64,000 nucleotides of DNA, from the IMG/VR virus record IMGVR_UViG_2651869695_000003, one strand, 5' to 3'. Position numbers and translations under genes: made by a program. Below the pieces are notes generated by a model. The model was not told the origin of the DNA and made no database searches. It saw nothing but the letters and a program-made list of their open reading frames with translations. The DNA is from a virus (taxonomy: Duplodnaviria > Heunggongvirae > Uroviricota > Caudoviricetes). Positions 5,375-24,534 of the stretch are shown here, piece after piece; positions within the stretch are counted from its first letter, which is position 1, and each line of letters opens with the position of its first letter.

Positions 5375-5878
5375 GTGCCGCATATGGCTGGAACGACGGG
5401 GCGTTCCGGGCGTCGCCCCAAGCCAACGGCGCGCAAGGCGCTGGCCGGAAATCCCGGCAAGCGAGCCCTGAACAAAGATGAACCTGTTTTTACGCCCATC
5501 AAAGGTGTTGAGCCACCGGAGTGGTTCGCTGAAGAAGATCTCCCTCTCGCCACGATCATGTGGCAACTGACAACCAAAGAACTCTGCGGTCAGGGCCTGC
5601 TGTGCGTGACTGACCTCGCGGTGCTTGAGCGGTGGTGCGTGGCCTACGAGTTCTGGCGACGTGCCGTGAAAAATATTGCCAGACAGGGCAACACCATCAC
5701 CGGTGCAATGGGCGGTATGGTCAAAAATCCGGAGCTGACCGCCAAAAAAGAACAGGAGTCCGAGATGAGCAGTACGGGGGCAATGCTCGGACTCGACCCC
5801 AGCAGCCGCCAGCGTCTGATTGGCCTGGCGGGGAAGAAGAAAGCCACTAACCCGTTTCTGAAAATCATCGAATCATGA
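5375..5878 (+). CDS. Terminase small subunit
   Basis: 167-aa basic ORF between HNH and large terminase, translationally coupled to next gene. Confidence 0.7.
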
Positions 5879-7608
5879 GCCGGAAATCTTACCCCAACGT
5901 AAATGCTGCCAATCAGTATGCCCGGGATGTCGTGCGCGGAAAGATTGTGGCCTGCCAGTTTGTGATTCAGGCCTGCCAGCGCCATCTTGATGACCTGATG
6001 GCGGAAAAAAGTAAGTCGTTTCGTTACCGCTTCGACAAGGACCTGGCTGAACGGGCCGCCAAATTTATTCAGCTGTTGCCGCACACCAAGGGTGAGTGGG
6101 CATTCAAGAGGATGCCCATCACGCTGGAGCCGTGGCAGCTCTTTGTGATCTGCTGCGCGTTTGGCTGGGTCAATAAAGGCTCCCGGCTGCGCCGCTTCAG
6201 GGAGGTGTATACCGAAATCCCCCGTAAGAACGGCAAATCGGCAATCTCTGCCGGTGTCGCTCTGTATTGTTTTGCCTGTGATAACGAGTTCGGCGCGGAA
6301 GTGTATTCCGGTGCCACGACGGAGAAACAGGCATGGGAAGTCTTTCGCCCGGCGCGACTGATGTGTAAACGCACACCAATGCTGACGGAAGCGTTCGGGA
6401 TTGAGGTTAACGCCTCAAACATGAACCGTCCGGAGGATGGCGCGCGGTTTGAACCGCTGATCGGTAACCCCGGTGATGGTTCATCACCCCACTGTGCGGT
6501 GGTGGATGAATATCACGAGCACGCCACCGATGCGCTTTACACCACGATGCTTACCGGGATGGGGGCGCGACGTCAGCCACTGATGTGGGCCATTACTACT
6601 GCCGGGTACAACATTGAGGGGCCGTGCTACGACAAGCGGCGGGAAGTTATCGAGATGCTCAACGGGTCGGTGCCTAACGATGAACTGTTCGGGATCATCT
6701 ATACCGTTGATGAAGGTGACGACTGGACCGACCCGCAGGTGCTGGAAAAAGCCAATCCAAATATTGGCGTGTCGGTTTATCGCGAATTTTTGTTAAGTCA
6801 GCAACAGCGTGCGAAAAATAACGCCCGTCTGGCAAACGTCTTTAAAACAAAACACCTCAATATCTGGGTGTCGGCGCGTTCGGCGTATTTCAACCTGGTG
6901 AGCTGGCAGAGCTGCGAGGATAAATCACTGACCCTTGAGCAGTTCGAGGGGCAGCCGTGCATTCTGGCCTTTGACTTGGCGCGTAAACTGGATATGAACA
7001 GCATGGCGCGACTTTATACCCGCGAGATTGACGGTAAAACGCATTACTACAGTGTGGCCCCGCGTTTCTGGGTACCGTATGACACGGTGTACAGCGTCGA
7101 GAAAAATGAAGATCGACGGACAGCCGAACGCTTTCAGAAATGGGTGGAAATGGGCGTTCTGACCGTTACCGATGGTGCGGAAGTGGATTATCGCTACATC
7201 CTCGAGGAGGCCAAAGCGGCGAACAAAATCAGCCCGGTCAGTGAGTCACCCATCGACCCCTTCGGGGCGACCGGGCTGTCACATGACCTTGCTGATGAAG
7301 ACCTGAACCCCATCACTATCATTCAGAACTACACCAACATGTCCGATCCGATGAAAGAGCTGGAAGCGGCAATTGAATCGGGGCGCTTTCATCATGATGG
7401 CAATCCCATCATGACCTGGTGTATCGGCAACGTGGTCGGCAAAACCATTCCGGGTAACGATGATGTGGTGAAGCCCGTCAAAGAGCAGGCGGAAAACAAA
7501 ATCGATGGTGCAGTTGCGCTGATTATGGCGGTTGGCAGAGCCATGCTGTACGAGAAAGAAGACACGCTGTCTGACCACATTGAGTCCTATGGGATCCGCT
7601 CGCTTTAA
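5875..7608 (+). CDS. Terminase large subunit
   Basis: 577 aa; ATPase and nuclease regions typical of TerL (VVDEYHE ... [10 protein letters not shown]). Confidence 0.9.
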
Positions 7609-7619
7609 CTGAGGTAATT

Positions 7620-7802
7620 ATGATCATGCTGATTCTCGCGCCTCTGGTGGGCGTGCTGGGGGCGCTTTTGCTGGCGTATGGTGCCTGGCTGATTTATCCC
7701 CCGGCGGGGTTTGTTGTTGCCGGGGCGTTGTGTCTGTTCTGGTCGTGGCTGGTGGCGCGATATCTCGACCGTACACAGTCGTCTGTCGGCGGAGGTAAAT
7801 AG
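7620..7802 (+). CDS. Small hydrophobic protein
   Basis: 60-aa ORF with two predicted TM helices between terL and portal. Confidence 0.35.
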
Positions 7803-9043
7803 TGTTCTTTTCGGGATTATTTCAACGAAAAAGTGACGCACCAGTGACCACGCCAGCAGAGCTGGCGGATGCTATCGGGTTGTCCTACGACACCTATATC
7901 GGAAAGCAGATCAGCAGCCAGCGGGCCATGCGACTGACGGCGGTTTTTTCCTGCGTCAGGGTGCTGGCAGAGTCGGTCGGGATGTTGCCCTGCAATCTGT
8001 ATCACCTGAACGGCAGCCTGAAAAAGAGAGCCACCGGCGAGCGTCTGCATAAGCTGATCTCCACGCATCCCAATGGCTATATGACGCCGCAGGAGTTCTG
8101 GGAGCTGGTGGTCACCTGTCTGTGCTTGCGGGGAAACTTTTACGCCTACAAAGTGAAAGGATTTGGCGAAGTGGCTGAACTGCTGCCCGTCGATCCCGGC
8201 TGTGTGGTACCGAAGCTTAACAGTAGCTGGGAGCCGGTCTATCAGGTCACATTCCCGGACGGCTCCACGGATGTACTGAGCCAGGAAGATATCTGGCATG
8301 TGCGCACGCTGACGCTGGACGGTCTGGTGGGACTGAATCCCATCGCCTATGCCCGCGAGGCAATATCGCTGGCAGCTGCGACCGAAGAGCACGGGGCCAG
8401 ACTGTTCAGCAATGGTGCGGTGACGTCCGGTGTGTTGCGTACAGAGCAGACGCTGTCGGATCAGGCTTATGAGCGCCTGAAGAAAGATTTTGAGGAGCGT
8501 CACACCGGGCTTGGCAATGCTCACCGCCCGATGATCCTTGAGATGGGGCTGGACTGGAAGTCGATGGCGCTGAACGCCGAGGACAGCCAGTTCCTGGAAA
8601 CCCGCAAGTTTCAGCTTGAAGAAATCTGTCGTCTGTTCCGGGTGCCATTGCACATGGTGCAGAACACCGATCGCGCCACCTTCAACAATATCGAAGAGCT
8701 GGGGCTGGGATTTATCAACTATTCACTGGTGCCGTATCTGACCCGCATTGAGCAGCGGATCAACACCGGACTGGTACGAAAAAGTAAGCAGGGCGTTTAT
8801 TACGCCAAATTTAACGCCGGGGCGTTACTGCGCGGGGATATGAAGTCCCGTTTTGAAGCCTACGCCACCGGTATCAACTGGGGAATTTACTCTCCCAATG
8901 ACTGCCGCGACCTGGAAGATATGAATCCGCGTCCCGGTGGGGATGTCTATCTCACGCCGATGAATATGACCACGAAACCCTCCGATGGCAGTAAAGCCGG
9001 TAAGCAGAAGGATAACGCCAATGCAGACGAAACAACGTCTTGA
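7802..9043 (+). CDS. Portal protein (HK97-like)
   Basis: 413 aa, gene order after TerL. Confidence 0.85.
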   Translation: MFFSGLFQRKSDAPVTTPAELADAIGLSYDTYIGKQISSQRAMRLTAVFSCVRVLAESVGMLPCNLYHLNGSLKKRATGERLHKLISTHPNGYMTPQEFWELVVTCLCLRGNFYAYKVKGFGEVAELLPVDPGCVVPKLNSSWEPVYQVTFPDGSTDVLSQEDIWHVRTLTLDGLVGLNPIAYAREAISLAAATEEHGARLFSNGAVTSGVLRTEQTLSDQAYERLKKDFEERHTGLGNAHRPMILEMGLDWKSMALNAEDSQFLETRKFQLEEICRLFRVPLHMVQNTDRATFNNIEELGLGFINYSLVPYLTRIEQRINTGLVRKSKQGVYYAKFNAGALLRGDMKSRFEAYATGINWGIYSPNDCRDLEDMNPRPGGDVYLTPMNMTTKPSDGSKAGKQKDNANADETTS

Positions 9044-9671
9044 TGTACCGCTGAGTCTGAAATCTGTCAGTGACTCCGGTGAGTTTGAAGGGTATGGCTC
9101 CGTCTTTGGTGTAAAGGACAGCCACGATGATGTGGTGATGTCCGGGGCATTTGCTGCTTCCCTGCGGGCGTGGAGTGACAGAAAAGCGTTACCTGCGCTG
9201 CTCTGGCAGCACCGCATGGATGAGCCCATCGGTGTTTACACCGAAATGAAGGAAGACGATGTCGGGCTTTACGTCAGGGGGCGATTGCTCATTGATGATG
9301 ATCCCCTGGCAAAACGCGCACATGCACACATGAAGGCCGGTTCGTTAACCGGCCTTTCTATTGGGTACGTCCTGAAGGACTGGGAATACGACCGGACGAA
9401 AGAAGCCTTTCTGCTGAAAGAAATCGACCTCTGGGAAGTCAGTCTGGTGACGTTCCCGTCTAACGACGAGGCACGGATCAGCGACGTCAAGAACGCGCTG
9501 GCTCGCGGGGAAATCCCCGAACAGAAAAAAATCGAAAGAGTCCTGCGTGATGTCGGACTCTCCCGTACCCAGGCCAAAGCATTCATGGCCGGGGGCTATA
9601 GCGCACTGTCCCTGCGCGACGCTGAGGATGTGAGCTCTGCACTGAATGCACTGAAAAATCTGAACTTCTAA
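9021..9671 (+). CDS. Prohead protease (HK97-like)
   Basis: Position between portal and capsid; AAGGA 9 nt upstream of ATG 9021; ORF track start 8985 is an upstream extension. Confidence 0.8.
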   Translation: MQTKQRLDVPLSLKSVSDSGEFEGYGSVFGVKDSHDDVVMSGAFAASLRAWSDRKALPALLWQHRMDEPIGVYTEMKEDDVGLYVRGRLLIDDDPLAKRAHAHMKAGSLTGLSIGYVLKDWEYDRTKEAFLLKEIDLWEVSLVTFPSNDEARISDVKNALARGEIPEQKKIERVLRDVGLSRTQAKAFMAGGYSALSLRDAEDVSSALNALKNLNF

Positions 9672-9685
9672 TCAGGAGAAATACG

Positions 9686-10891
9686 ATGGCGGTAGATATT
9701 AAAGATGTCGAACAGGTCGCGCAGGAGCTGCAGCAGAAGTTTGACGACTTCAAAGCAAAGAACGACAAGCGCGTGGATGCGATTGAGCAGGAAAAAGGCA
9801 AGCTTGCCGGACAGGTGGAAACCCTGAACGGGAAACTCAGCGAGCTGGAAAATCTCAAAAGCGACCTTGAAAAAGAGCTGCTTGAGCTGAAACGTCCGGC
9901 AGGTGGATCGCAAAATAAACTGGCCACCGAGCATAAAGAGGCGTTTGTGGGCTTCCTGCGTAAAGGCCGTGAAGACGGTCTGCGCGATCTGGAGCGTAAG
10001 GCATTGCAGGTGGGCACCGATGAAGACGGTGGCTACGCCGTGCCGGAAGAACTGGATCGCAACATTCTTAACCTGCTGAAAGATGAAGTGGTGATGCGTC
10101 AGGAAGCCACGGTGATCACCGTTGGCGGTTCCGACTACAAAAAACTGGTGAATCTGGGCGGTACGGCTTCCGGATGGGTGGGGGAAACGGATACGCGATC
10201 CCAGACTGCCACCTCCAGACTGGAGCTGATTGAACCTCTCATGGGGGAAATCTACGGCAACCCGCAGGCTACCCAGAAAATGCTGGACGATGCCTTCTTC
10301 AACGTGGAGGCCTGGATCAACAGCGAGCTGGCGACCGAATTTGCCGAACAGGAAGAAATTGCCTTTACCACCGGCGATGGTACCAAGAAGCCAAAAGGGT
10401 TCCTGGCGTATGAATCTACTGATGAAACCGATAAGATCCGGGCGTTCGGCAAACTTCAGCATATTGTATCCGGCGAAGCGACCGCGGTGACCGCAGACGC
10501 CATTATCAAACTGATTTACACGCTGCGTAAGGCACACCGCACTGGCGCGAAGTTCATGATGAACAACAACAGCCTGTTTGCCATCCGTCTGCTGAAAGAC
10601 ACCGAGGGTAACTATCTGTGGCGTCCGGGGCTGGAACTGGGGCAGCCGTCCTCTCTGGCGGGTTACGGTATCGCTGAAAACGAACAGATGCCGGATATCG
10701 CCGCTGATGCGAAAGCCATTGCATTTGGTAACTTCAAACGGGGTTACACCATCGTTGACCGTATCGGCACCCGCATTCTGCGTGACCCGTACACCAATAA
10801 ACCGTTTGTCGGTTTTTATACCACCAAGCGCACCGGCGGGATGCTGGTCGATTCGCAGGCCATCAAACTGCTGAAGATTGCAGCGGCGTAA
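9686..10891 (+). CDS. Major capsid protein (HK97 fold family)
   Basis: 401 aa with N-terminal coiled-coil delta-like region followed by capsid domain; follows protease. Confidence 0.85.
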   Translation: MAVDIKDVEQVAQELQQKFDDFKAKNDKRVDAIEQEKGKLAGQVETLNGKLSELENLKSDLEKELLELKRPAGGSQNKLATEHKEAFVGFLRKGREDGLRDLERKALQVGTDEDGGYAVPEELDRNILNLLKDEVVMRQEATVITVGGSDYKKLVNLGGTASGWVGETDTRSQTATSRLELIEPLMGEIYGNPQATQKMLDDAFFNVEAWINSELATEFAEQEEIAFTTGDGTKKPKGFLAYESTDETDKIRAFGKLQHIVSGEATAVTADAIIKLIYTLRKAHRTGAKFMMNNNSLFAIRLLKDTEGNYLWRPGLELGQPSSLAGYGIAENEQMPDIAADAKAIAFGNFKRGYTIVDRIGTRILRDPYTNKPFVGFYTTKRTGGMLVDSQAIKLLKIAAA

Positions 10892-10898
10892 TCACTCA

Positions 10899-10918
10899 GG
10901 GGCGCGGAACCGCGCCCC
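10899..10918 (+). terminator. Stable hairpin downstream of capsid gene
   Basis: GGGGCGCG-GAAC-CGCGCCCC; weak T tract. Confidence 0.35.
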
Positions 10919-10940
10919 CTGTTCTGACGGGTGAAGAATC

Positions 10941-11141
10941 ATGATCCTGAAACAAGATCTGAAATGGTCACCGGACGGTATGCGTGTTGAGGTCATTCGG
11001 GCCGGTGAGTATGACGACGGGGCGCTTCCTGCCCGGGTGCAGGAGATTGCACTTCAGGCCGGGTTAGCAGAGCGCGGAATCAGTGCAAAAAGCAGTAAAG
11101 CGGCAAAAGAGAAAAAAGCCACGACCAGTAAAGAGGGCTGA
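10941..11141 (+). CDS. Small hypothetical head-module protein
   Basis: 66-aa ORF in operon context. Confidence 0.4.
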   Translation: MILKQDLKWSPDGMRVEVIRAGEYDDGALPARVQEIALQAGLAERGISAKSSKAAKEKKATTSKEG

Positions 11142-11143
11142 GT

Positions 11144-11467
11144 ATGCTTCTGACAATGGAAGAGATTAAAGCCCAACTCCGGCTGGATGAGGATTTCGAT
11201 GCTGATGACCGCCATCTGCAACTGCTGGCCTGTGCGGCACAAAAGCGGACGGAAACGTATCTGAACCGGAAGCTCTATGCACCGGATGAAACCATTCCGG
11301 ACAGCGATCCGGACGGGCTGCACCTGCCGGATGATATTCGTCTGGGGATGCTGATGCTTATCAGCCATTTTTACGAAAACCGCTCGTCGGTTACGGAAGT
11401 GGAGAAACTCGACATGCCGCAGAGTTTTGGCTGGCTTGTCGGCCCGTACAGGTACTTTCCGCAATGA
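11144..11467 (+). CDS. Head-tail connector (gp6-like)
   Basis: 107 aa; N-terminus MLLTMEEIKAQLRLDEDFDADD typical of this family; synteny. Confidence 0.6.
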   Translation: MLLTMEEIKAQLRLDEDFDADDRHLQLLACAAQKRTETYLNRKLYAPDETIPDSDPDGLHLPDDIRLGMLMLISHFYENRSSVTEVEKLDMPQSFGWLVGPYRYFPQ

Positions 11468-11874
11468 AAATTCGTCAGGCGCAGACCAGCGCAACCTACA
11501 TTCTGCCGGACCCCGGTGAACTGAATAAACGCGTCCTGATCCGCCAGCGGGTGGATATGCCCGCGGATAACTTTGGCGTGGAGCCTCAATACCCGGTTAC
11601 GTTCCGGACATGGGCGAAGGTTATCCAGACCAGTGCCACCACCTGGCAGGAAACCGCGCAGACCGGGGACGCCATCACCCATTACATCACCATTCGTTAC
11701 CGCCGGGGGATCACCGCTGATTATGAGGTGGTCTGCGGTGACAGTGTGTACCGGGTGAAACGTCAGCGCGATCTGAACGGGGCGCGGCGCTTTCTGCTGC
11801 TGGAGTGTACGGAGCTGGGCGAATGTGGGCAGAGTCACGGAGGCAACAATGACGACTTCCTTTTTGCACGTTGA
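11464..11874 (+). CDS. Head closure / head-tail adaptor protein
   Basis: 136 aa, synteny after connector. Confidence 0.55.
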   Translation: MKIRQAQTSATYILPDPGELNKRVLIRQRVDMPADNFGVEPQYPVTFRTWAKVIQTSATTWQETAQTGDAITHYITIRYRRGITADYEVVCGDSVYRVKRQRDLNGARRFLLLECTELGECGQSHGGNNDDFLFAR

Positions 11875-12355
11875 TTTTCAGCAGCCCGCGGAGATGCGCT
11901 TTAACCGCGCCCGTGTCCGGCGGGCGTTTGTCACGATTGGTCAGCGTCATATGCGTGATGCCCGTCGGCTGGTGATGCGCCGTGCGCGGTCGGCACCGGG
12001 TGAAAACCCCGGTTATCAGACCGGACGCCTGGCTCGTTCGATTGGTTACATGGTACCCAGAGCCAGTAAACATCGCCCTGGTTTTATGGCACGTATAGCC
12101 CCTAACCAGCGTAATGGAGAGGGAAACCGCCGTATCACCGGTGATTTTTATCCGGCTTTTTTGTTCTATGGCGTGAGGCGAGGGGCAAAGCGTCGTCGCA
12201 GCCATCATCGTGGTGCATCCGGTGGCAGCGGCTGGCGACTGGCTCCACGTAATAACTTCATGGTGGAAACGCTTGAAAAGAACCGCAGCTGGACACGCTA
12301 TTTTCTGGCGCGGGAATTGCGTAAATCACTGAAGCCGGAGCGACGACACAGATGA
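11825..12355 (+). CDS. Virion morphogenesis protein (HK97 gp10-like), start uncertain
   Basis: 176-aa basic ORF, synteny. Confidence 0.5.
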   Translation: MGRVTEATMTTSFLHVDFQQPAEMRFNRARVRRAFVTIGQRHMRDARRLVMRRARSAPGENPGYQTGRLARSIGYMVPRASKHRPGFMARIAPNQRNGEGNRRITGDFYPAFLFYGVRRGAKRRRSHHRGASGGSGWRLAPRNNFMVETLEKNRSWTRYFLARELRKSLKPERRHR

Positions 12356-12912
12356 AACTGACGCCTGTTATTGCTGCACTGCGTGCCCGCTGTCCATATT
12401 TTGAAAACCGGGTTGCAGGCGCGGCCCAGTTCAAAAATCTGCCGGAGGTCGGAAAGCTGAAACTCCCGGCGGCATATGTTGTACCGGGTGATGATTCTCC
12501 GGGAGAAAACAAAAGCCAGACCGACTACTGGCAGGAGCTGAAAGAGGGCTTCTCCGTGGTTGTCATACTGAGTAACGGGCGTGATGAGCGCGGTCAGTTT
12601 GCTTCGTATGATGTGGTGGACGATGTCCGGCAGATGCTCTTTAAGGCCCTGCTGGGCTGGAACCCGGAAGCGTGCGGTAACCCGATTAACTATGACGGCG
12701 GCACGCTGCTGGATCTGAATCGTCATGAGCTGATTTATCAGTTCGATTTTTCGATCATCAGCGAGCTGACCGAAGACGATACCCGCCAGCAGGATGACCT
12801 GAACAGTCTGGATGAACTGCGAACGCTGGCGATTGATGTTGATTATCTCGATCCCGGTAACGGGCCTGACGGCGATATCGAACATCACACCGAAATAACC
12901 CTTCCTTCCTGA
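12352..12912 (+). CDS. Tail completion / neck protein (putative)
   Basis: 186 aa, translationally coupled, precedes sheath. Confidence 0.5.
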   Translation: MKLTPVIAALRARCPYFENRVAGAAQFKNLPEVGKLKLPAAYVVPGDDSPGENKSQTDYWQELKEGFSVVVILSNGRDERGQFASYDVVDDVRQMLFKALLGWNPEACGNPINYDGGTLLDLNRHELIYQFDFSIISELTEDDTRQQDDLNSLDELRTLAIDVDYLDPGNGPDGDIEHHTEITLPS

Positions 12913-12920
12913 GAATCTTC

Positions 12921-13091
12921 ATGTTTGTGAAACCTGTTAAAGGGCGGTCAGTGCCTGACCCTGCCCGCGGTGACCTTTTGCCCGCCGAAGGGCGAAATGT
13001 TGACGAGAACAACTACTGGCTGCGCCGTGAAGCAGCGGGTGATATCCGGCGCGTGAATAAAAAGGTGAACACCGATGACGATAAGCTTTAA
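12921..13091 (+). CDS. Small protein upstream of tail sheath (56 aa)
   Basis: ORF below the track's 60-aa cutoff, read manually; overlaps sheath start. Confidence 0.35.
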   Translation: MFVKPVKGRSVPDPARGDLLPAEGRNVDENNYWLRREAAGDIRRVNKKVNTDDDKL

Positions 13092-14571
13092 CACCATTCC
13101 GTCGAATACGCTGGTTCCGCTGTTTTATGCGGAAATGGATAACCAGGCGGCGAATACTGCACAGGACAACGGAGCATCGCTGCTGATTGGTCATGCCAAT
13201 AACGGTGCAGAGATTGTTGCCAACAGTCTGGTGCTGATGCCGTCGGCAGACTATGCACGCCAGATTTGTGGTGCGGGAAGTCAGCTGGCGCGTATGGTCG
13301 AGGCTTATCGCCAGACCGACCCGTTTGGTGAGCTGTATGTGATTGCCGTTCCGGAAGCCACAGGCGCGGCGGCAACGGTTACGCTGACGGTGACCGGGGA
13401 AGCAACCGAAAGCGGCACGGTGAATGTCTATGTGGGACGTACCCGCGTGCAGGCTCCGGTGACCAACGGCGATAACGTCACGACGATTGCCAGCAGTATC
13501 AAAGATGCCATCAATGCCGTTCCGACTCTGCCGTTTACAGCTTCATCTTCGGCTGGCGTGGTCACACTGACCGCGCGTCATAAGGGGCTTTGCGGGAATG
13601 AAATTCCTGTCAGCCTCAATTACTACGGCTTCGGTGGGGGCGAAGTGCTGCCAGCGGGCGTACAGATTGCCGTGGCGACGGGGAACGCCGGAACGGGCGC
13701 TCCTGTTCTCACCGGCGCGGTGGCTGCAATGGCGGATGAGCCGTTTGATTATATCGGCCTGCCGTTCAACGACACGGCCTCCGTTAACACGCTGGTGACC
13801 GAGATGAACGATACCAGCGGTCGCTGGAGCTATGCGCGTCAGCTGTATGGTCATGTGTATACGGCAAAGATCGGCACGCTGTCAGAACTGGTGACCGCAG
13901 GTGACCAGTTTAACCAGCAGCACATTACCCTAGCGGGGTACGAAAAAGACACCCAGACGCCTGCCGACGAGCTGGCGGCAAGCCGTACCGCCCGCGCAGC
14001 GGTGTTTATCCGCAACGATCCGGCACGTCCCACGCAGACCGGTGAGCTGGTGGGTATGCTGCCTGCGCCGAAGGGGAAACGGTTCACGATGACCGAGCAG
14101 CAGACCCTGCTGTCTCATGGCGTGGCAACGGCGTATGTCGAAAGCGGGGTGCTGCGCATTCAGCGTGATGTCACCACGTACAGGAAAAATGCTTACGGGG
14201 TTGCGGATAACAGCTACCTCGACAGCGAGACGCTGCATACCAGTGCGTATGTACTGCGCAAACTGAAATCCGTCATTACCAGTAAGTACGGGCGTCACAA
14301 GCTTGCCAGCGACGGTACCCGCTTTGGTCCCGGTCAGGCGATTGTCACCCCGGCGGTAATCAAAGGGGAACTGCTGGCAACCTACCGTCAGCTTGAGCGT
14401 GCGGGGATCGTGGAAAACTACGAACTGTTTAAGCAGTACCTGGTTGTGGAGCGTGATGCCAGCGATCCGAACCGCCTGAACACGCTGTTCCCGCCTGACT
14501 ATGTTAACCAGTTGCGTGTTTTTGCCGTGGTTAACCAGTTCCGTCTTCAGTATTCAGAGGAGTCTGCATAA
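13075..14571 (+). CDS. Tail sheath protein (Mu L-like)
   Basis: 498 aa, followed by 118-aa tube gene; contractile-tail synteny. Confidence 0.85.
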   Translation: MTISFNTIPSNTLVPLFYAEMDNQAANTAQDNGASLLIGHANNGAEIVANSLVLMPSADYARQICGAGSQLARMVEAYRQTDPFGELYVIAVPEATGAAATVTLTVTGEATESGTVNVYVGRTRVQAPVTNGDNVTTIASSIKDAINAVPTLPFTASSSAGVVTLTARHKGLCGNEIPVSLNYYGFGGGEVLPAGVQIAVATGNAGTGAPVLTGAVAAMADEPFDYIGLPFNDTASVNTLVTEMNDTSGRWSYARQLYGHVYTAKIGTLSELVTAGDQFNQQHITLAGYEKDTQTPADELAASRTARAAVFIRNDPARPTQTGELVGMLPAPKGKRFTMTEQQTLLSHGVATAYVESGVLRIQRDVTTYRKNAYGVADNSYLDSETLHTSAYVLRKLKSVITSKYGRHKLASDGTRFGPGQAIVTPAVIKGELLATYRQLERAGIVENYELFKQYLVVERDASDPNRLNTLFPPDYVNQLRVFAVVNQFRLQYSEESA

Positions 14572-14927
14572 TGGCCCGTATCGGGGGAACCTGTTATTTC
14601 AAAATTGACGGTCAGCAGCTATCGCTGACCGGCGGCATTGAGGTGCCCATGAACAGGACGGTCAATGATGACATCATCGGCCTGGACGGTTCAGTGGACC
14701 GCAAGGAAACTCACCGTGCGCCTTATGTCAAAGGGACCTTCAAGGTGCCGAAGAATTTTCCGGTGAGCAAAATCACCTCGTCTGATGAGATGACCATCAC
14801 TGCCGAGCTGGCGAACGGTCAGGTCTATGTATTGTCGTCCGCCTGGCTGCACGGAGAAGCGAACCATAATGCCGAAGAAGGCACGGTTGATCTTGAGTTC
14901 CACGGTGAAGAAGGGGATTACCAGTAA
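14571..14927 (+). CDS. Tail tube protein (Mu M-like)
   Basis: 118 aa, directly after sheath. Confidence 0.75.
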   Translation: MARIGGTCYFKIDGQQLSLTGGIEVPMNRTVNDDIIGLDGSVDRKETHRAPYVKGTFKVPKNFPVSKITSSDEMTITAELANGQVYVLSSAWLHGEANHNAEEGTVDLEFHGEEGDYQ

Positions 14928-15196
14928 TGAAAGAGCTTGAGTTAAAGAAACCGATTATCGCTCATGGTGAGACACTCTCCGTACTGGAGTTTGATGAACC
15001 CACCGGGAAGGATGTCCGCGAGCTGGGGTATCCCTACCAGATGAATCAGGATGAGTCCGTCAGACTTCTGGCGCATGTGGTGTCGAAATACATTGTGCGG
15101 CTGGCGAAAGTGCCGCAAAGCTCTGTCGACCAGATGTCTCCGGCAGACCTGAATGCAGCGGCGTGGCTTGTGGCTGGTTTTTTCCTCCAGGCCTGA
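14927..15196 (+). CDS. Tail assembly chaperone (short form)
   Basis: 89 aa immediately upstream of tape measure gene. Confidence 0.6.
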   Translation: MKELELKKPIIAHGETLSVLEFDEPTGKDVRELGYPYQMNQDESVRLLAHVVSKYIVRLAKVPQSSVDQMSPADLNAAAWLVAGFFLQA

Positions 15197-15345
15197 CGGC
15201 TGAATACCTCACTGATCGCTTCTTTGACTGCGCCAGTTACTGGCGCATTAATCCCTTCGAATTGCTGAATATGCCGATCAGTGAAATTCCCTTGCTGGTC
15301 AGTCAGGCAAACAGGATAGAGCAGGAGAAACGCACACATGGCTGA
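14927..15345 (+). CDS. Tail assembly chaperone, -1 frameshift fusion product (long form)
   Basis: Overlapping -1 frame ORF 15163..15345; slippery heptamer T TTT TTC at 15178..15184. Confidence 0.5.
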
Positions 15346-17173
15346 ATTTGAGCTTAAGGCGTTGATCACCGGTGTCGACAGGCTTTCTCCCGCGCTGTCG
15401 AAAATGCAAAAGAAAATCCGGGGATTTAAACGCCAGGCGGAAGAAGCGTCACAGGGTGGGCTGGCGCTTGGTGGCGGACTGGCAGCGGGTCTGACGCTTT
15501 CCCTGAAATCTTATGCCGATCAGGAAAACGCCGCCACCGGGCTGAAAGTCGCCATGATGGATGCGAACGGCGAGGTTGGAAAGAGCTTTCAGGACATCAA
15601 TAAACTGGCTATTGGCCTGGGTAACCAGCTACCCGGTACAACGGCTGATTTCCAGAACATGATGCAGATGCTGGTGCGTCAGGGGATCCCGGCAGAAAAC
15701 ATTCTTGGTGGTGTGGGTAAAGCGACAGCTTATCTTGCGGTACAACTGAAAAAAACACCGGAAGCGGCTGCTGAGTTTGCTGCAAAGATGCAGGATGCTA
15801 CCGGAACGGCGTCAGAAGACATGATGGGGCTGTTCGACACTATCCAGAAGGCGTTTTATCTGGGCGTTGATGATACCAACATGTTGTCCTTCTTCACTAA
15901 AACCAGTTCTGTTCTGAAAATGGTGAATAAGGACGGTCTTCAGGCTGCACAGAGTCTTGCCCCCATCAGTGTCATGATGGATCAGATGGGGATGAACGGG
16001 GAGTCGGCAGGTAATGCCCTGCGAAAAGTTATCCAGTCCGGATTAAGCGTTAAGAAAATCAGGGACGTCAATAAAATCATGGCCCGCCAGAAACTCGGGG
16101 TACAGCTCGATTTTACTGATGGCAAAGGGAGTTTTGGCGGTCTTGATAACATGTTCAGGCAACTGGCAAAGCTGCGAAAACTGACCGACGTTAAGCGAAC
16201 CGGTGTACTTAAGGCAATATTTGGTGATGATGCCGAAACCCTTCAGGTGGTCAATGCGCTGATCGATAAAGGAAAGGATGGCTACGATCAGATCCAGCAG
16301 AAGATGAATAAACAGGCCAGCCTGAATAAACGTGTTCAGGCTCAGCTTGGTACGCTGTCCAACCTGTGGGAGGCAATGACGGGGACCGCAACTAACGGCC
16401 TTGCGGCTATTGGCGGCGCATTTTCTGGTGACGCTAAAAATATCACGCAATGGCTGGGGGAGTTAGGGGAAAAATTCACGAAGTTTGCGGATGAAAATCC
16501 CCGGGTTATTCGCGGCGTCGTCGGGCTTGCTGCCGGTCTTGCGATTCTGAAACTGGGATTGATGGGCGTTGGCGGTGCCATCAGTATTGTCAGCAGGATC
16601 ATGTCGATGACGCCGATTGGCATGATTGCGACGGCGATAGCCCTGGCTGCGGGATTAATTATCACTAACTGGGATGTTGTCGGACCTTATTTTAAGAAAC
16701 TCTGGGAAACCATTGGTCCTTATTTTGAGACTGGCTGGGAACTTCTTAAGAAGGTTTTTGCCTGGTCGCCGCTGGGGATGGTGATCAATAACTGGGGACC
16801 GGTTGTTAAGTGGTTTCAGGATATGTGGGACAAGCTGAAGCCAATTATTGAGTGGTTTACCGACAGTTCCGGTGACACGGTCGATGCCATTAACTCTGCG
16901 CAGTGGGGCGCGGGTGCTTATGATGCTTATGGGACGGGAATACCGGCGCGGGGATACACACCTTATCCGGCGGTAGATCCGGCTCAGTCAAACAACGCCT
17001 CCGATGCCACAGGCCTGAATCCCTTCATGATTAACAAAGCTTCTGCGCCAAAAGTTGATGGTGAGATCAAGGTCTCTTTTGTGAATTCGCCTCCGGGTAT
17101 GCGGGTTATGGAAACGCGATCCAGCGGTTTTGATGTCAGCCATGATGTTGGCTATACGCGCTTTGGCAGGTAA
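15338..17173 (+). CDS. Tail tape measure protein
   Basis: 611 aa, Ala/Gly-rich helical, hydrophobic C-terminal segment. Confidence 0.85.
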   Translation: MAEFELKALITGVDRLSPALSKMQKKIRGFKRQAEEASQGGLALGGGLAAGLTLSLKSYADQENAATGLKVAMMDANGEVGKSFQDINKLAIGLGNQLPGTTADFQNMMQMLVRQGIPAENILGGVGKATAYLAVQLKKTPEAAAEFAAKMQDATGTASEDMMGLFDTIQKAFYLGVDDTNMLSFFTKTSSVLKMVNKDGLQAAQSLAPISVMMDQMGMNGESAGNALRKVIQSGLSVKKIRDVNKIMARQKLGVQLDFTDGKGSFGGLDNMFRQLAKLRKLTDVKRTGVLKAIFGDDAETLQVVNALIDKGKDGYDQIQQKMNKQASLNKRVQAQLGTLSNLWEAMTGTATNGLAAIGGAFSGDAKNITQWLGELGEKFTKFADENPRVIRGVVGLAAGLAILKLGLMGVGGAISIVSRIMSMTPIGMIATAIALAAGLIITNWDVVGPYFKKLWETIGPYFETGWELLKKVFAWSPLGMVINNWGPVVKWFQDMWDKLKPIIEWFTDSSGDTVDAINSAQWGAGAYDAYGTGIPARGYTPYPAVDPAQSNNASDATGLNPFMINKASAPKVDGEIKVSFVNSPPGMRVMETRSSGFDVSHDVGYTRFGR

Positions 17174-17233
17174 TGAAAAATTAATCTGTTAATGAGTCCC
17201 ACTCCGGTGGGATTTTTTATGTACGGAGTTTAT

Positions 17234-18562
17234 ATGACGTGGAAAGACAGACTTCAGGACGCGTCATTTCGCGGTGTGCCGTTTAAGGTTGAAGAAGAAA
17301 GTGCGGGAACCGGTCGTCGTGTGGAAACGCACGAATACCCGAACCGCGACAAACCCTATACCGAAGACCTGGGGAAAATCACTTTCCGCCCGTCCATCAC
17401 GGCTTATGTGGTGGGAGATGACTGCTTTGACCAGCGCGATCGCCTGATTGACGCGCTGAATAAACCCGGTCCCGGCACGCTTGTCCATCCGACTTACGGT
17501 GAGCTGAAAGTCTGTGTTGACGGAGAGGTTCGGGTCAGCACATCGAAGAGTGAAGGGCGTATTGTCCGCTTTGACCTGAAGTTTGTCGAAGCGGGAGAAC
17601 TCTCTTACCCCACATCAGGTGCGGCGACGGCGCAGACGCTGATGTCATCCTGTTCTGCACTGGATGACTGCATCAGTGACAGTTTCAGTAGTTTCAGTAT
17701 CGATGGCGTGGCAGATTTTGTGCAGAACGACGTCGTCGGTAATGCCAGCACAATGCTTGGGTATGTTTCTGATGCGATGAAAGTGGTGGATTCTGCCGTA
17801 TCGGATGCCGCCAGGCTGTTGCAGGGGGATATCTCGGTACTTCTGCCGCCGCCATCGTCAGGCAAAAATTTCGTTGAGCAGGTGCAGAAAATGTGGCGTA
17901 CCGGGAAACGCCTTTATGGTAACGCCAGCGACCTGGTCACCATGATCAAAACGCTTTCCGGTGTCAGCCTCGGCAGCGATCTGCAACCGCGCGGCGTCTG
18001 GAAAACGGACAGTAAAACCACCGCCACGGCTACGCAGCAGCGTAACGTGGTTGCCAGCACCCTTCGTACGACCGCAATCAGCGAAGCGGCGTATGCCGTC
18101 ACCCGATTGCCTGCGCCAACAACTTCCGCGGTGATGCAGAATGCCGCAGTGGGGCAGGCAACAACACCTGCGCAGAGCACTGGCTGGCCTTCCGTCACGC
18201 ATCCGGCACTGAACAATGCACCGGCGGTGAAAAACACAGTTGACCTGCCGACGTGGGAAGAACTGACTGACATTCGCGACACACTGAATACGGCAATTGA
18301 TAAGGAGTTGTCCCGTACAACCAGTGATGCGCTGTTTCTGGCGCTGCGCCGGGTGAAAGCAGATCTGAATGCGGATATCAACACGCGCCTTGAACAGTCT
18401 GCACGGATCATTCAGCGCACGCCGGATGAGGTTTTACCCGCGCTGGTGCTGGCGGCGACCTGGTTTGATAACGCGGCGCGTGACGCGGACATTATCCGGC
18501 GTAATGCCATTACGCATCCCGGCTTTGTGCCGGTGATCCCTCTGAAGGTGCCAGTGCAATGA
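17234..18562 (+). CDS. DNA circularisation protein N-like (Mu gpN family)
   Basis: Motif WKDRLQDASFRGVPF at N-terminus; GGAG 6 nt upstream of ATG 17234; ORF track start 17192 is an upstream extension. Confidence 0.7.
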   Translation: MTWKDRLQDASFRGVPFKVEEESAGTGRRVETHEYPNRDKPYTEDLGKITFRPSITAYVVGDDCFDQRDRLIDALNKPGPGTLVHPTYGELKVCVDGEVRVSTSKSEGRIVRFDLKFVEAGELSYPTSGAATAQTLMSSCSALDDCISDSFSSFSIDGVADFVQNDVVGNASTMLGYVSDAMKVVDSAVSDAARLLQGDISVLLPPPSSGKNFVEQVQKMWRTGKRLYGNASDLVTMIKTLSGVSLGSDLQPRGVWKTDSKTTATATQQRNVVASTLRTTAISEAAYAVTRLPAPTTSAVMQNAAVGQATTPAQSTGWPSVTHPALNNAPAVKNTVDLPTWEELTDIRDTLNTAIDKELSRTTSDALFLALRRVKADLNADINTRLEQSARIIQRTPDEVLPALVLAATWFDNAARDADIIRRNAITHPGFVPVIPLKVPVQ

Positions 18563-19638
18563 ACGATAACGTCACGCTACGGGTAAATGGCCGGGAGTGG
18601 AATGGCTGGACATCGGTGCGCATCGGTGCCGGTATTGAACGGCTGGCGCGGGATTTCAGTGTGGAGATCACTCGCCAGTGGCCGGGAGATGAGGGTATCA
18701 CCACGCTTCAGCCGCGCATTAAAAACGGTTCAAAAGTGGAAGTGCTGATTGGTGATGAGCTGGTGATCACCGGCTGGGTGGAGGCGACGCCCGTTCGGTA
18801 CGATGCCCGTTCGGTCAGCACCGGTATTGCCGGACGTAGTCTGACGGCTGACCTGATTGACTGTGCAGCCGAACCGACACAGTTTAACGGACGCTCGCTG
18901 GTGCAGATTGCGCAGGCGCTTGCTGCGCCTTTCGGCATTGAGGTGGTGAACAGCGGTGCGCCGTCGGGTGTTATTCCTGATGTTCAGCCTGATCACGGTG
19001 AAACGGTGATTGAGGTAATCAACAAAATACTCGGTCAGCAGCAGGCGCTGGCTTACGACGACCCGCACGGCAGGCTGGTGATTGGCGGTATTGGCTCAAC
19101 GCGGGCACATACCGCGCTGGTACTTGGGGAAAACATCCTTTCCTGTGATACGGAGAAGAGTATCCGGGACCGGTTTTCTGTTTACCAGGTGGCGGGGCAG
19201 CGTGCCGGAAACGACGATGATTTCGGTGAGGCCACCACCACCGCGCTGCGGGCCCGCACAGAGGACGCATTTATTGCCCGTTACCGTCCGATGTATATCA
19301 GGCAGACAGGGCAGGCTACGGGGGCAGGCTGTATTGCGCGTGCTGACTTTGAAGCCCGGCAACGGGCGGCGCGGACGGATGAAACCACCTATGTGGTGCA
19401 GGGCTGGCGACAGGGTAACGGTACGCTGTGGCAACCCAACCAGCGGGTGATTGTCTTTGATCCGGTCTGTGGTTTTGACAATACCGAACTGCTTGTTTCG
19501 GAAGTCACGTTTACTCAGGACCAGAACGGCACCCTGACGGAAATCCGTGTCGGCCCGCCTGATGCTTATCTGCCTGAACCTGAAGCCCCCGGCGCGCGGA
19601 AAAAGAAAAAAGCCAGAGTACAGGAGGACCCGTTCTGA
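18559..19638 (+). CDS. Baseplate/tail protein (Mu gpP-like)
   Basis: 359 aa, synteny. Confidence 0.7.
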   Translation: MNDNVTLRVNGREWNGWTSVRIGAGIERLARDFSVEITRQWPGDEGITTLQPRIKNGSKVEVLIGDELVITGWVEATPVRYDARSVSTGIAGRSLTADLIDCAAEPTQFNGRSLVQIAQALAAPFGIEVVNSGAPSGVIPDVQPDHGETVIEVINKILGQQQALAYDDPHGRLVIGGIGSTRAHTALVLGENILSCDTEKSIRDRFSVYQVAGQRAGNDDDFGEATTTALRARTEDAFIARYRPMYIRQTGQATGAGCIARADFEARQRAARTDETTYVVQGWRQGNGTLWQPNQRVIVFDPVCGFDNTELLVSEVTFTQDQNGTLTEIRVGPPDAYLPEPEAPGARKKKKARVQEDPF

Positions 19639-20186
19639 TGAGGACGATTGAAGCCATGCAGCGACAACTTCTCGGCCTGATTGGGCGGGCAGTGGTGAAA
19701 AGCATCAGTGCCGCCACGAAATGTCAGACCGTGGATGTGTCCCTGATTGCCGGTGAACCCAAAGCCGGGGTTGAACATCTTGAACCCTACGGTTTTACCG
19801 CAAGGGCAAACAGCGGTGCGGAAGCGGTGGTGTTGTTTCCGGATGGCGACCGTTCTCATGCGGTGGTTGTTACGGTGTCGGACCGGCGCTACCGCCTGAA
19901 AGGGCTGCAGACGGGTGAGGTGGCTGTCTATGACGATCAGGGGCAGTCTGTGACGCTGACCCGGGAGGGGATCGTGGTGGACGGTGCAGGTAAAACGATC
20001 ACGTTTCGCAATGCGCCCAGAGCACGTTTTGAAATGGACCTGGAAGTGACCGGACAGGTGAAAGACCTGTGCGACTCCGGCGGCACCACCATGTCAGCGA
20101 TGCGGCTTGCCTATAACGGCCATTGTCACAGAGAGAACGGTCAGGGCAGTAACACCGACAAACCGGATAAAGCGATGGAGGCATGA
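19638..20186 (+). CDS. Baseplate assembly protein V (spike)
   Basis: 182 aa, synteny. Confidence 0.7.
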   Translation: MRTIEAMQRQLLGLIGRAVVKSISAATKCQTVDVSLIAGEPKAGVEHLEPYGFTARANSGAEAVVLFPDGDRSHAVVVTVSDRRYRLKGLQTGEVAVYDDQGQSVTLTREGIVVDGAGKTITFRNAPRARFEMDLEVTGQVKDLCDSGGTTMSAMRLAYNGHCHRENGQGSNTDKPDKAMEA

Positions 20187-20611
20187 TGGAACTGTGGCTG
20201 ACGGTGAACGGTAAACGCACCTGCGCCAGCGCACCGCTGGATCCGCTGACCCGCGCCGTGGTGATTTCCCTGTTTACCTGGCGGCGGGCGGAGCCTGATG
20301 ACAATGCCGACGTCCCGATGGGATGGTGGGGGGATACCTGGCCTGCGGTACAGAATGACCGTTACGGCTCCCGGCTGTGGCTGCTTCAGCGCGGCAAACT
20401 GACCAATCAGCTGGTGCAGACGGTAAGGGGGTATATCCGCGAATGCCTGCAATGGATGATTGATGACGGTGTGGTGTCCCGTATTGATCTGGATATCCGC
20501 CGCACCGGGATTAATGAACTGGGTAACAGTATCACTCTCTGGCGTCGTGACGGACCGGTAATGATTTCTTTTGATGATCTGTGGAGTGCGATAACGCATG
20601 GCGGACAGTGA
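20183..20611 (+). CDS. Baseplate protein gp25/GPW-like
   Basis: 142 aa, synteny. Confidence 0.7.
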   Translation: MMELWLTVNGKRTCASAPLDPLTRAVVISLFTWRRAEPDDNADVPMGWWGDTWPAVQNDRYGSRLWLLQRGKLTNQLVQTVRGYIRECLQWMIDDGVVSRIDLDIRRTGINELGNSITLWRRDGPVMISFDDLWSAITHGGQ

Positions 20612-21656
20612 ATTTCAGCGCCCGACGCTGGCAGAAAATATCAGTATGCTCCGTAACGATTTATTCGCCAGGCTGGACGTCAGCGACACGCTCCGGCGCA
20701 TGGATGAAGACGTGCGGGCAAAGGTGTATGCGGCGGCGCTGCATACGGTTTACGGTTACATCGATTATCTGGCAATGAACATGCTGCCTGACCTGTGCGA
20801 TGAGTCCTGGCTGGCGAGACATGCTGCGATGAAACGGTGTCCGCGCAAGGGGGCCACGTCTGCCAGCGGGTATATGCGCTGGGAAGGTGTCAGCGATGGC
20901 CTGAAGGTGACCGCCGGGAGTGTTATTCAGCGCGATGATCTGGTTCAGTACACGGCAACTTCTGATGCAACCAGCTCAGGTGGAGTCCTGCGCGTGCCGA
21001 TCGCCTGCTCAACTGCAGGCGCGGTCGGTAACGCTGACGACGGTACGGCATTAATCCTGGTCACGCCGGTGAATGGTCTGCCGTCTTCCGGTGTGGCAGA
21101 TACCCTGACTGGCGGATTCGATACTGAAGATCTGGAAACGTGGCGCGCCCGCGTCATTGAGCGGTATTACTGGACGCCGCAGGGCGGGGCTGACGGGGAC
21201 TATGTCGTCTGGGCTAAAGAAGTGCCCGGCATTACCCGCGCATGGACATACCGTCACTGGATGGGAACGGGGACTGTCGGTGTGATGATTGCCGGCAGTG
21301 ACCTGATTAATCCCATTCCGGAAGAATCAACGGAAACGGCGGCAAGACAACATATCGGGCCACTGGCCCCGGTGGCAGGCTCTGATTTGTATGTGTTCAG
21401 GCCGGCGGCGCATACGGTGGATTTTCATATCCGCGTGACGCCGGACACACCAGAAATACGGGCTGCCATTACCGCGGAGTTGCGTTCGTTCCTGCTGCGT
21501 GATGGTTATCCGCAGGGAGAACTGAAGGTATCGCGTATCAGTGAGGCGATTTCCGGTGCGAACGGGGAATACAGCCATCAATTGCTTGCACCGGCGGACA
21601 ATATCTCCATTGCAAAAAATGAACTGGCGGTTCTGGGGACGATTTCATGGACGTGA
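20598..21656 (+). CDS. Baseplate J-like protein
   Basis: 352 aa, synteny. Confidence 0.8.
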
Positions 21657-22231
21657 CAAACGATGATTACATCCGTCTGTTGTCGGCACTGCTGCCGCCC
21701 GGTCCGGCGTGGTCAGCCAGCGATCCGGCGATTGCCGGTACGGCACCGTCATTAACCCGTGTTCATCAGCGTGCGGATGCCCTGATGCGGGAGCTGGATC
21801 CGCGCACCACCACCGAACTGATAAACCGCTGGGAGCGTCTGTGCGGCCTGCCGGATGAATGTATTCCTACAGGGACACAGACCCTTCGCCAGCGCCAGCA
21901 ACGGCTGGATGCGAAGGTTAACCTGTCGGGTGGCATCAACGAGGATTTTTATCTTGCACAGCTTGCTGCCCTGGGCAGACCAGATGCTACCATCACGCGA
22001 TACGACAAAAGCACGTTCACCTGCTCATCGGCCTGTACTGACGCGGTGAATGCGCCGGAATGGCGGTATTACTGGCAGATCAACATGCCAGCCGCCACCA
22101 ACACCACCTGGATGACATGTGGCGATCCCTGTGATTCCGCACTGCGTATCTGGGGCGACACCGTTGTCGAATGTGTGCTTAACAAACTCTGCCCGTCGCA
22201 TACCTACGTAATTTTTAAATATCCGGAGTAA
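21647..22231 (+). CDS. Tail protein, YmfQ/Mu gp48-like (DUF2313)
   Basis: 194 aa; immediately upstream of tail fibre. Confidence 0.65.
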
Positions 22232-22234
22232 TCC

Positions 22235-23218
22235 ATGCATCGTATAGACACGAAAACCGCGCAGAAGGATAAGTTCGGCGCGGGTAAGAACGGTTTTACC
22301 CGTGGTAACCCCCAGACCGGCACACCTGCCACCGATCTTGATGATGACTACTTTGATATGTTGCAGGAAGAACTCTGCAGCGTGGTGGAGGCATCCGGTG
22401 CCAGCCTGGAGAAGGGGCGGCATGACCAGCTGCTTACCGCGCTTCGTGCGCTGCTGTTAAGCCGCAAGAATCCGTTTAGCGATATCAAATCGGATGGCAC
22501 GGTGAAAACGGCTCTCGAAAACCTTGGTTTGGGAGAAGCCAGATTCTCTGGTCGTTTGTTAAACACGAATATTTTTAAAAGCTCTGGAAAATATATCCCA
22601 ACACTAGGGACAAAAAAGATAAGGGTCATTGCCTCTGGTGGCGGTGGCGGCGGCGGTGGGGTTCCTGAAACAACAGAAAATCAGCAGGCAACAGCCGGAG
22701 CTGGATTGAGCGGTGCATTTATTGAAGCATTTTTCGAGGTTGATAATGATTTCGAAGTCAACGTTATTATCGGTGCTGCAGGTAAAGGGGGGGGAGCCGG
22801 AAGAAATTCAGGTAGTGAAGGTGGCACAACTTATTTCGGTTCCCTGATAACTGCACCGGGTGGTACAGGCGGTGGCGCGGGGGGAGCATCTGCAAACACA
22901 TCATATATTCAGGGTATTTCATGGGGTGCCAGTCCGACATCGTCCGGTACTGTACTAAGAGCATTTCGCTGTAGTGCAAAAACACCAGGAGCAATGGTTA
23001 TCTCTGTTAAAGCTGTTGCAGGTGGTACCGGGGGGGATACACCACTAGGTTCAGGCGGTATAGGTGGTGCAAGTTCTTCATCATTCAGCGGACGTGGTGG
23101 TGGTAAAGCTGAGGGCTTTGGTGCTGGCGGAGGCGGAGCCTGCGCACCTGCCGGAAGTGAGGCTCAATCGGGAGGTGACGGTGCCCCGGGAATAGTTATT
23201 GTTGAGGAGTATGCCTGA
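22235..23218 (+). CDS. Tail fibre protein, variant A (constant N-terminus 102 aa + Gly-rich variable C-terminus)
   Basis: First 102 aa identical to the fibre at 23869..24531; C-terminus rich in GGxGG repeats. Confidence 0.8.
22512..22537. other. Candidate Din-family invertase crossover site (left)
   Basis: CTCTCGAAAACC-TT-GGTTTGGGAGAA fits the hix/gix/cix-type pattern (TTnTCnnAAACC-NN-GGTTTnnGAnAA, from memory); lies at the constant/variable junction. Confidence 0.55.
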
Positions 23219-23481
23219 TGAGTAATTTTGCTCTGATTGAACATGGCGTGGTGAAAAATATTATTATCTGGGATGGAGAGGGTGATTTATTCTCTAACTG
23301 CGAAATTATAAATATTGATCATATAGATGCAGGCGTCGGTTGGTTCTATTCTGACGGAGAGTTTATAGCACCACCGGAACCGGAAATGACTGAATATGAT
23401 GTTGGTAATATCGACGCGGTGATGGAATCAGATACCAGCACCGCGCCGGACGTCATCTGGCCTGAACTGCCGGAGGCGTAG
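23218..23481 (+). CDS. Tail fibre assembly protein for variant A
   Basis: 87 aa; start overlaps fibre A stop (TGATG); C-terminus ...[12 protein letters not shown] resembles Tfa C-termini. Confidence 0.55.
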   Translation: MSNFALIEHGVVKNIIIWDGEGDLFSNCEIINIDHIDAGVGWFYSDGEFIAPPEPEMTEYDVGNIDAVMESDTSTAPDVIWPELPEA

Positions 23482-23872
23482 GCCATTCAATATCTGGCGC
23501 ACCGGAAGTATCGACCAGTTCCAGTGCGTCCAGGTAATCCAGCCACAAATTATATTGCGCCAGTTCCTCACCTTTCAGACGACCAATAGCGGCTTTACCA
23601 GGCCATTGCTTACTGTTCATGTATTCGTTGGCCTGTTCAATAAGTATACTTTTCATTCCCTCCGCTTCAGCTATTTCCTGTTCCTGTGTCTTCGCTGGAT
23701 ATTCAGTAAGTACAGGGTAGTTATCCGGATTATTGATAATAATTTTCCCCGTACTCTGACCATTCATAAGTTCATAATAAAGAGCATCTTCAATATCGAA
23801 AGCATCATCGGGAATATCGCTGTTATTTTCAGAGAAAAATCCCTGAACAGATGGGGACCATTTCATTTTCAT
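23453..23872 (-). CDS. Tail fibre assembly protein for variant B
   Basis: 139 aa; coupled to fibre B; C-terminus ...[15 protein letters not shown]; 3' end overlaps convergent tfa A by 29 nt. Confidence 0.7.
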
Positions 23873-24531: not shown

Positions 24532-24534
24532 GGA

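Follow-up and report, generated by a model that had tools for sequence, protein, structure and literature searches.

The tail assembly chaperone gene in the window, by which we mean the whole 64,000-nt stretch of phage DNA analyzed here, very probably contains a programmed −1 ribosomal frameshift site of the P2 type, that is, of the gpE/gpE+E′ class, as judged from the sequence and its relatives. An earlier note on the same DNA had proposed such a frameshift in this gene. The proposal is supported by the position of the gene, the register of the slippery heptamer, the conservation of the heptamer, the pattern of selection on the two reading frames, the lack of a start of its own for the −1 frame, and the homology to P2. 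This kind of frameshift is already known biology. The arrangement is a textbook one, and nothing about it is new in kind.

The chaperone locus and its overlapping reading frames

The chaperone gene lies on the plus strand within a run of tail genes. A tail sheath protein gene (13075..14571; PF04984, PF17482, and PF17481; phrog_165, E=2.7e-231) is followed by a tail tube protein gene (14571..14927; PF10618, E=2.4e-33), the stop codon of which overlaps the ATG of the chaperone gene (14927..15196). The zero-frame product of the latter is a gpE/G-like protein of 89 aa with the C-terminus ...AAAWLVAGFFLQA (ending in AGFFLQA). It matched the tail protein family phrog_166 as well as PF10109 (Phage_TAC_7), which is described as "Phage tail assembly chaperone proteins, E, or 41 or 14". 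The latter match had an E-value of 6.8e-15 and a score of 55.3 bits, with a gathering cutoff of 25 bits, and covered profile positions 2–78 of 79. Downstream follows the tape measure protein gene (15338..17173; PF10145, E=1.3e-26; phrog_28 and phrog_17727, both tape measure), and Mu-like DNA-circularization and baseplate genes lie 3′ of it. Flanked by the tube gene and the tape measure gene, the chaperone gene thus occupies the expected chaperone position. No relative turned up when the PDB was searched with a profile, and Rfam, promoter, and terminator scans of 14800..15500 were all negative.

The chaperone ORF is overlapped by a −1 frame ORF that runs to 15345 and reaches the start of the tape measure gene, exactly at the coordinates given in the earlier note. 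The −1 frame is free of stop codons from 15055 up to the TGA at 15343..15345, and its first start codon is a GTG at 15163. The tape measure ATG at 15338 overlaps the end of this ORF by 8 nt (ATGGCTGA), and an AGGAG at 15323..15327 is likely the ribosome-binding site of the tape measure gene. The slippery heptamer T TTT TTC (15178..15184) is located within the overlap of the two frames, 9 nt upstream of the zero-frame stop. It is surrounded by the zero-frame codons GCT GGT TTT TTC CTC, and the division GGT|TTT|TTC places it in the X XXY YYZ register that is correct for a −1 shift, as had been claimed. The predicted fusion product is composed of 14927..15184 and 15184..15345, with C15184 read twice, and comprises 139 aa. 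Its predicted sequence is ...AGFF-PPGLTAEYLTDRFFDCASYWRINPFELLNMPISEIPLLVSQANRIEQEKRTHG (AGFF-PPGLTAEY...), and the predicted junction peptide is ...WLVAGFFPPGLTAEYLTDR. The −1 frame extension, corresponding to an E′/T segment of 53 codons plus stop (15184..15345), matched phrog_32181 with an E-value of 4e-40; no Pfam model covered it in the profile search of the locus proteins.

Taken by itself, the heptamer is only suggestive and constitutes weak evidence; its significance comes from its conservation. The string TTTTTTC was observed 31 times on both strands of the window, with about 15 occurrences expected. In the plus-strand genes of the phage, 18 in-register X XXY YYZ heptamers were counted per 6642 codon positions. 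From this background, a probability of about 0.12 results for at least one in-register heptamer in the 46-codon overlap, and the chance probability for the last six codons of the chaperone gene is about 0.016. Three further in-register heptamers were found close to the ends of other reading frames, namely TTTAAAC at 1382..1388, 15 nt before the stop of ORF 996..1406, AAAAAAT at 21614..21620, 33 nt before the stop of a baseplate J-like gene, and CCCGGGA at 23185..23191, 24 nt before the stop of a tail-fiber gene. At the given background, these are probably due to chance.

Conservation of the heptamer and of the −1 peptide

The window was compared with 18 diverged relatives of the SfV clade, which share 70–98% nucleotide identity and come from more than 10 genera. 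They were derived from Edwardsiella, Buttiauxella, Citrobacter, Atlantibacter, Scandinavium, Kluyvera, Pantoea, Enterobacter, Cronobacter, Salmonella, Leclercia, Kosakonia, Hamiltonella, and metagenomes. TTTTTTC was kept in register in 19/19 sequences, and the distance between heptamer and stop ranged from 3 to 9 nt across the 18 relatives. Upstream of the heptamer, the numbers of variable columns at the first, second, and third codon positions of frame 0 were 30/18/75. Downstream of the zero-frame stop, the corresponding numbers for frame −1 were 24/15/39. This flip in codon-position variability indicates that purifying selection switches from one frame to the other at the heptamer. Up to the heptamer, translation of the −1 frame gave no conserved peptide in the relatives and ran into stop codons at differing positions, whereas the −1 peptide downstream of the heptamer was conserved (FFPPGLTAEYL..DCASYWRINPFELL..QANRIE). 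Furthermore, 36 chaperone codons specify an invariant amino acid with a degenerate codon. The third base was invariant in only three of them, and the heptamer accounts for two of these three with its TTT and TTC.

Similar sites were found in more distant clades. SfIV, ST64B, phiP27, and F1055, with about 40% amino acid identity, carry an in-register T TTT TTT at the homologous Phe-Phe, and Burkholderia phage BgVeeders33 has T TTT TTC at this position. The −1 peptide is conserved in these five phages, with the motif ...A-x-(Y/F)-W-(R/K)-φ-(N/D)-P.... At the level of the wider protein family, a search over 1.84 billion representative proteins retrieved 526 homologues, the alignments of which end at query residues 86–93 and thus at the slip site. 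Among 125 family representatives, the slip position is occupied by FF in 116 and by FL in 5, at a median distance of 10 residues from the C-terminus.

The best 150 of the 526 homologues included no fusion that is naturally in frame. The search for such G-T fusions in two protein databases yielded "fused" candidates that had to be rejected: P0001–P0006 are singletons with scattered indel errors, and the others are tandem G-G duplications instead of G-T fusions. Tandem duplications of the chaperone domain were seen in the distant relatives P0131, P0133, P0144, P0149, P0163, P0212, and P0227 (174–221 aa); the second copy, and in some cases also the first, ends in an ...FF... motif. An alignment-based locus search of viral contigs returned near-identical sequences only. 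Two isolate-derived prophage sequences, IMGVR_UViG_2585427747_000001 and 2585427730_000011 (L022 and L023), contain one extra G right before the T run (GGGTTTTTTC), at locus positions ~1040–1060. The additional base places chaperone and extension in one frame and gives exactly the predicted 139-aa fusion. The extra G may stem from a sequencing error in the homopolymer or mark a mutant that makes the long form only; we did not use it as proof.

Comparison with P2, lambda, and other known systems

The −1 frameshift that gives rise to E and E+E′ of phage P2 is cited as demonstrated (Christie et al., 2002, via PMC3091744), and the RefSeq record of P2 (NC_001895) contains both the E+E′ join and the frameshift site. 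The P2 case and the general rule of frameshifting in tail chaperone genes are described in PMC5009743, PMC3091744, and PMC2628397. P2 gpE/gpE+E′ and the chaperone of the window belong to the same family, PF10109, and share the operon place right before the tape measure gene. The shift direction is −1 in both phages, and the overlap between the −1 stop and the tape measure ATG amounts to 8 nt in both. The product sizes are also similar, with 91 and 142 aa in P2 and 89 and 139 aa in the window. The P2 slip site GGT TTT TTG is located at ...VGFL and that of the window, GGT TTT TTC, at the homologous ...(A/V)GF(F/L). The T run comprises six bases in the window and in P2 and seven in the ST64B clade. 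In neither P2 nor the window does a stimulatory structure adjoin the slip site.

The two loci differ in the last base of the heptamer, which is G in P2 and C in the window, and in the distance from the heptamer to the zero-frame stop, which is 18 nt in P2 and 9 nt in the window. Their overall sequence identity is low. An hhalign comparison spanning both parts of the protein was weak (E=0.013, probability 3%) and placed vagF of the window opposite vvgF of P2. For the −1 extension of the window and P2 E′, a common φ-x-x-φ-(F/Y)-x-W...E-L motif was discernible by eye, while the similarity according to hhalign was marginal. The window phage itself is not P2-like but a mosaic of the SfV type whose tail genes resemble those of Mu.

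The earlier note had described the site as a conserved arrangement of the G/GT type. This description holds for the logic and the anatomy of the locus, but the closest family is P2 gpE/gpE+E′ (PF10109, contractile tails) and not lambda G/GT. In lambda, the chaperone gene is likewise located between the major tail gene and the tape measure gene. Ribosomes shift by −1 at a low level close to the 3′ end of this gene, which sets a fixed ratio of short to extended protein, and neither of the two is found in the virion (PMC5009743). The domain common to both products has been proposed to bind the tape measure protein and the extension to bind the tube subunit (Levin et al., 1993; Xu et al., 2004, 2013, 2014; summarized in PMC5009743). 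The lambda proteins, however, constitute a different family without detectable sequence similarity to the window chaperone, the lambda heptamer is G GGA AAG, and the lambda tail is non-contractile.

The neighboring tail genes of phage Mu resemble those of the window, namely sheath L, tube M, DNA circularization N, and baseplate P, and gp41 (Mup41) has the same place before the tape measure gene. Mu has been reported to use a −2 shift (PMC5009743, PMC2628397). Its open extension of 55 codons lies in the +1/−2 frame, and a −1 ORF is missing, whereas the window shows the opposite. Since the +1 frame of the window stays open over no more than 16 codons, a Mu-type +1/−2 shift is excluded. The dnaX and IS3/IS911-type sites likewise depend on tandem tRNA slippage on X XXY YYZ with E. 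coli ribosomes. They reach tens of percent with an upstream Shine–Dalgarno-like element and/or a hairpin or pseudoknot 5–9 nt downstream, and neither kind of element was found at the window site.

Alternative explanations

The fusion protein could also be generated at the level of transcription. If RNA polymerase added an extra U in the U6 run, a minority of the mRNA would have both ORFs in frame. The site is indeed a homopolymer, with six T here and seven in the ST64B clade, and one extra base yields the identical fusion protein. The two prophage sequences with the extra G, which encode the exact fusion, show that an mRNA longer by one nucleotide would work. A run of six T is short, however, as efficient transcriptional slippage in the characterized bacterial cases needs ~8–9 or more A/T. 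Slippage by the polymerase does not require an X XXY YYZ register either, and yet the run is always in register, with C, T, or G as the last base. Moreover, both the annotation of the homologous P2 site and the literature citing it describe a −1 frameshift at the level of translation. We consider transcriptional slippage very unlikely and infer that the slippage is ribosomal.

Two further explanations would do without a fusion protein. The −1 ORF might be a separate gene that is translated alone from the GTG at 15163 into a 60-aa protein. The GTG is present, a hypothetical protein is entered for the ORF in the record of phage vB_EcoM-689R6, some contigs have it among their called genes, and PHROGs includes it as phrog_32181. 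Yet no Shine–Dalgarno sequence precedes this GTG, and 17/25 loci have no ATG, GTG, or TTG between the upstream −1 stop and the heptamer. Where start codons do occur, they arise incidentally from the synonymous base that precedes the zero-frame Trp codon, and conservation of the −1 peptide sets in only at the heptamer. Independent translation is thus extremely improbable. The other explanation is a coincidence, in which the heptamer merely encodes a needed Phe-Phe, the downstream frame is non-functional, and a second product is irrelevant. An in-register heptamer in the overlap is expected by chance with the probability of about 0.12 given above. Moreover, FF is conserved across the family at the protein level, and part of the nucleotide conservation could therefore reflect a constraint on the protein. 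However, Phe-Phe could also be written as TTC TTC, TTC TTT, or TTT TTT, and Gly as GGN, whereas the slippery form is invariant. Of the comparable synonymous sites in the gene, 33/36 vary, and two of the three invariant ones belong to the heptamer. Substitutions in the −1 ORF are biased toward third positions, its peptide is conserved across clades with 40% identity, and the 8-nt overlap of stop codon and tape measure start recurs in P2. In view of these data, a mere coincidence is hardly credible.

Proposed mechanism

According to the reading as a programmed −1 ribosomal frameshift, most ribosomes would read 14927..15196 and release the 89-aa chaperone. In a minority of ribosomes, a tRNA-Phe on UUU in the P site and a tRNA-Phe on UUC in the A site would both slip back by one base onto UUU UUU (15178..15183). 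Translation would then continue with CCU CCA GGC... up to the TGA at 15343. The resulting protein of 139 aa would consist of the same N-terminal domain and a 53-residue extension. Functions can be proposed from lambda G/GT and P2 E/E+E′: the N-terminal domain common to both products may bind and coat the tape measure protein, and the extension may bind and recruit the tube protein. If so, tail-tube assembly would be guided by the two products being made in a fixed, low ratio. We infer these protein functions, as well as the efficiency of the shift, from the related systems. A low and fixed fraction of fusion protein is expected, as in lambda and P2. The level of fusion protein is approximately 1 in 30 in lambda and 2–3 fold higher in P2 (PMC5009743).

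Frameshift efficiency and RNA structure

In their analysis of all heptamers in E. coli, Sharma et al. assigned H_HH.U_UU.Y, including U_UU.U_UU.C and U_UU.U_UU.U, to the efficient class (PMC4066793). UUUUUUC gave 0.12% frameshifting with no stimulator, 0.89% with the IS911 stimulator, and 7.6% with the IS3 pseudoknot. For UUUUUUG, the heptamer of P2, the corresponding values were 0.12%, 0.25%, and 0.77% (PMC4066793 supplement). Given the ~0.12% of bare UUUUUUC in the E. coli reporter, either the efficiency at the window site is low or other features of the context raise it. The downstream stimulatory structure that the earlier note had suggested looking for did not appear in the canonical place. 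No significant structure starts 5–9 nt downstream of the heptamer, and 15185..15228 folds like shuffled sequences (z=−0.1). The sole 4-bp stem within 15185..15228 is unconserved, as are the alifold stems around the heptamer. A conserved upstream Shine–Dalgarno-like (GGAGG-like) element was not found among the related loci. The absence of stimulatory structures has been reported for P2, too (PMC3091744).

A conserved hairpin is located inside the −1 extension on the plus strand, 44 nt past the heptamer, and at this distance it is too far downstream for a canonical stimulator. Its stem of 8 bp, UGCGCCAG-NUA-CUGGCGCA (15229..15247), has a dG of −12.7 kcal/mol (z=−4.2). The hairpin is invariant in 18/19 clade members, while the third base of the loop and flanking third bases vary. 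Without Hamiltonella, 4/4 synonymous sites of the stem are invariant versus 3/15 elsewhere in the −1 ORF (Fisher p=0.009); with Hamiltonella included, the constraint is not significant (p=0.29). In the Hamiltonella sequence, three pairs are broken, and one is kept through a double change.

P2 contains a stable structure ~51 nt downstream (z=−3.1). In 39 distinct P2-like sequences, however, polymorphisms break pairs more often than they preserve them (7 versus 4), and none is compensatory. ST64B has no excess structure downstream (z=−0.4). The P2 polymorphisms and the result for ST64B leave a family-wide conserved RNA element unsupported, and we rejected this candidate. A functional RNA element of the SfV-type chaperone mRNA is a speculative and rather unlikely reading of the hairpin. 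If it were true, the hairpin could shield the 142 nt that are left untranslated by >95% of the ribosomes from Rho-dependent termination or RNase, which would safeguard tape measure expression. Alternatively, the hairpin could modulate the frameshift across an unusually large distance, and this might explain how enough fusion protein is obtained from a heptamer that gives ~0.1% alone.

Occurrence and annotation

The DNA of the locus is 98–99.7% identical to that of the Shigella phages SfV, SfI, and SfII and of Escherichia phages. The chaperone region, a segment of 930 bp from the tube gene to the start of the tape measure gene, was present in 1086/5426 complete E. coli genomes. A joined chaperone CDS is nevertheless absent from the records of SfV, SfIV, ST64B, phiP27, AH07, F1055, BgVeeders33, and vB_EcoM-689R6 as well as from the RefSeq annotation of E. 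coli H10407. Where the −1 segment is annotated at all, it is entered as a separate "hypothetical protein", and phrog_32181 is listed in PHROGs with "unknown function". The entry ON470584.1 9199..9381, for instance, corresponds to the −1 extension (window 15163..15345). Such separate-gene entries look like annotation artifacts of a missed frameshift.

The practical value of our analysis lies in the correction of the annotation to a joined chaperone CDS. If the −1 segment is taken as an E′/T extension, one protein family of unknown function is removed, and the set of tail-assembly proteins of SfV-like phages becomes complete. These phages are medically relevant because they are the serotype-converting phages of Shigella flexneri.

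The mirror copy and the prophage context

A second copy of chaperone and −1 extension is encoded on the minus strand (31421..31839), with the chaperone ORF at 31570..31839 and the extension at 31421..31582. The mirror heptamer at 31582..31588, to which the earlier note had pointed, is indeed the exact reverse complement of 15178..15184, and a mirror hairpin lies at 31519..31537. Window positions 1..22539 are an inverted copy of 24227..46765 with 0 mismatches, so that position x maps to 46766−x. The mirror site adds no independent evidence for the frameshift, because the gene there is merely repeated within a perfect inverted copy of 22.5 kb that covers the whole phage late region.

The repeat arms end at the junction between the constant and the variable part of the tail fiber (residue 102/103), within ...CTCGAAAACCTTGGTTTGGGAGAAGC, a sequence that we take to resemble a Pin/Gin/Cin crossover site. 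The center (22540..24226) contains two alternative fiber C-termini and two fiber-assembly genes in opposite orientation. It thus has the layout of an invertible tail-fiber segment. No invertase gene is present between the repeat arms, and the complete junction was absent from all complete E. coli genomes searched. In E. coli G1/2, the corresponding side carries the invertase gene pinE in place of a second phage arm. The palindrome may have arisen by recombination at the crossover site of the invertase, or the assembly may have produced it as a fold-back artifact. The right-hand copy continues into genes for a CI-like repressor (Peptidase_S24; 51370..52044), a tyrosine integrase with an arm-binding domain (56202..57377), and a DDE (rve) transposase (59342..60406). 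From this order, the prophage should end near 57–58 kb, and the window thus represents a lysogen and not a free phage genome.
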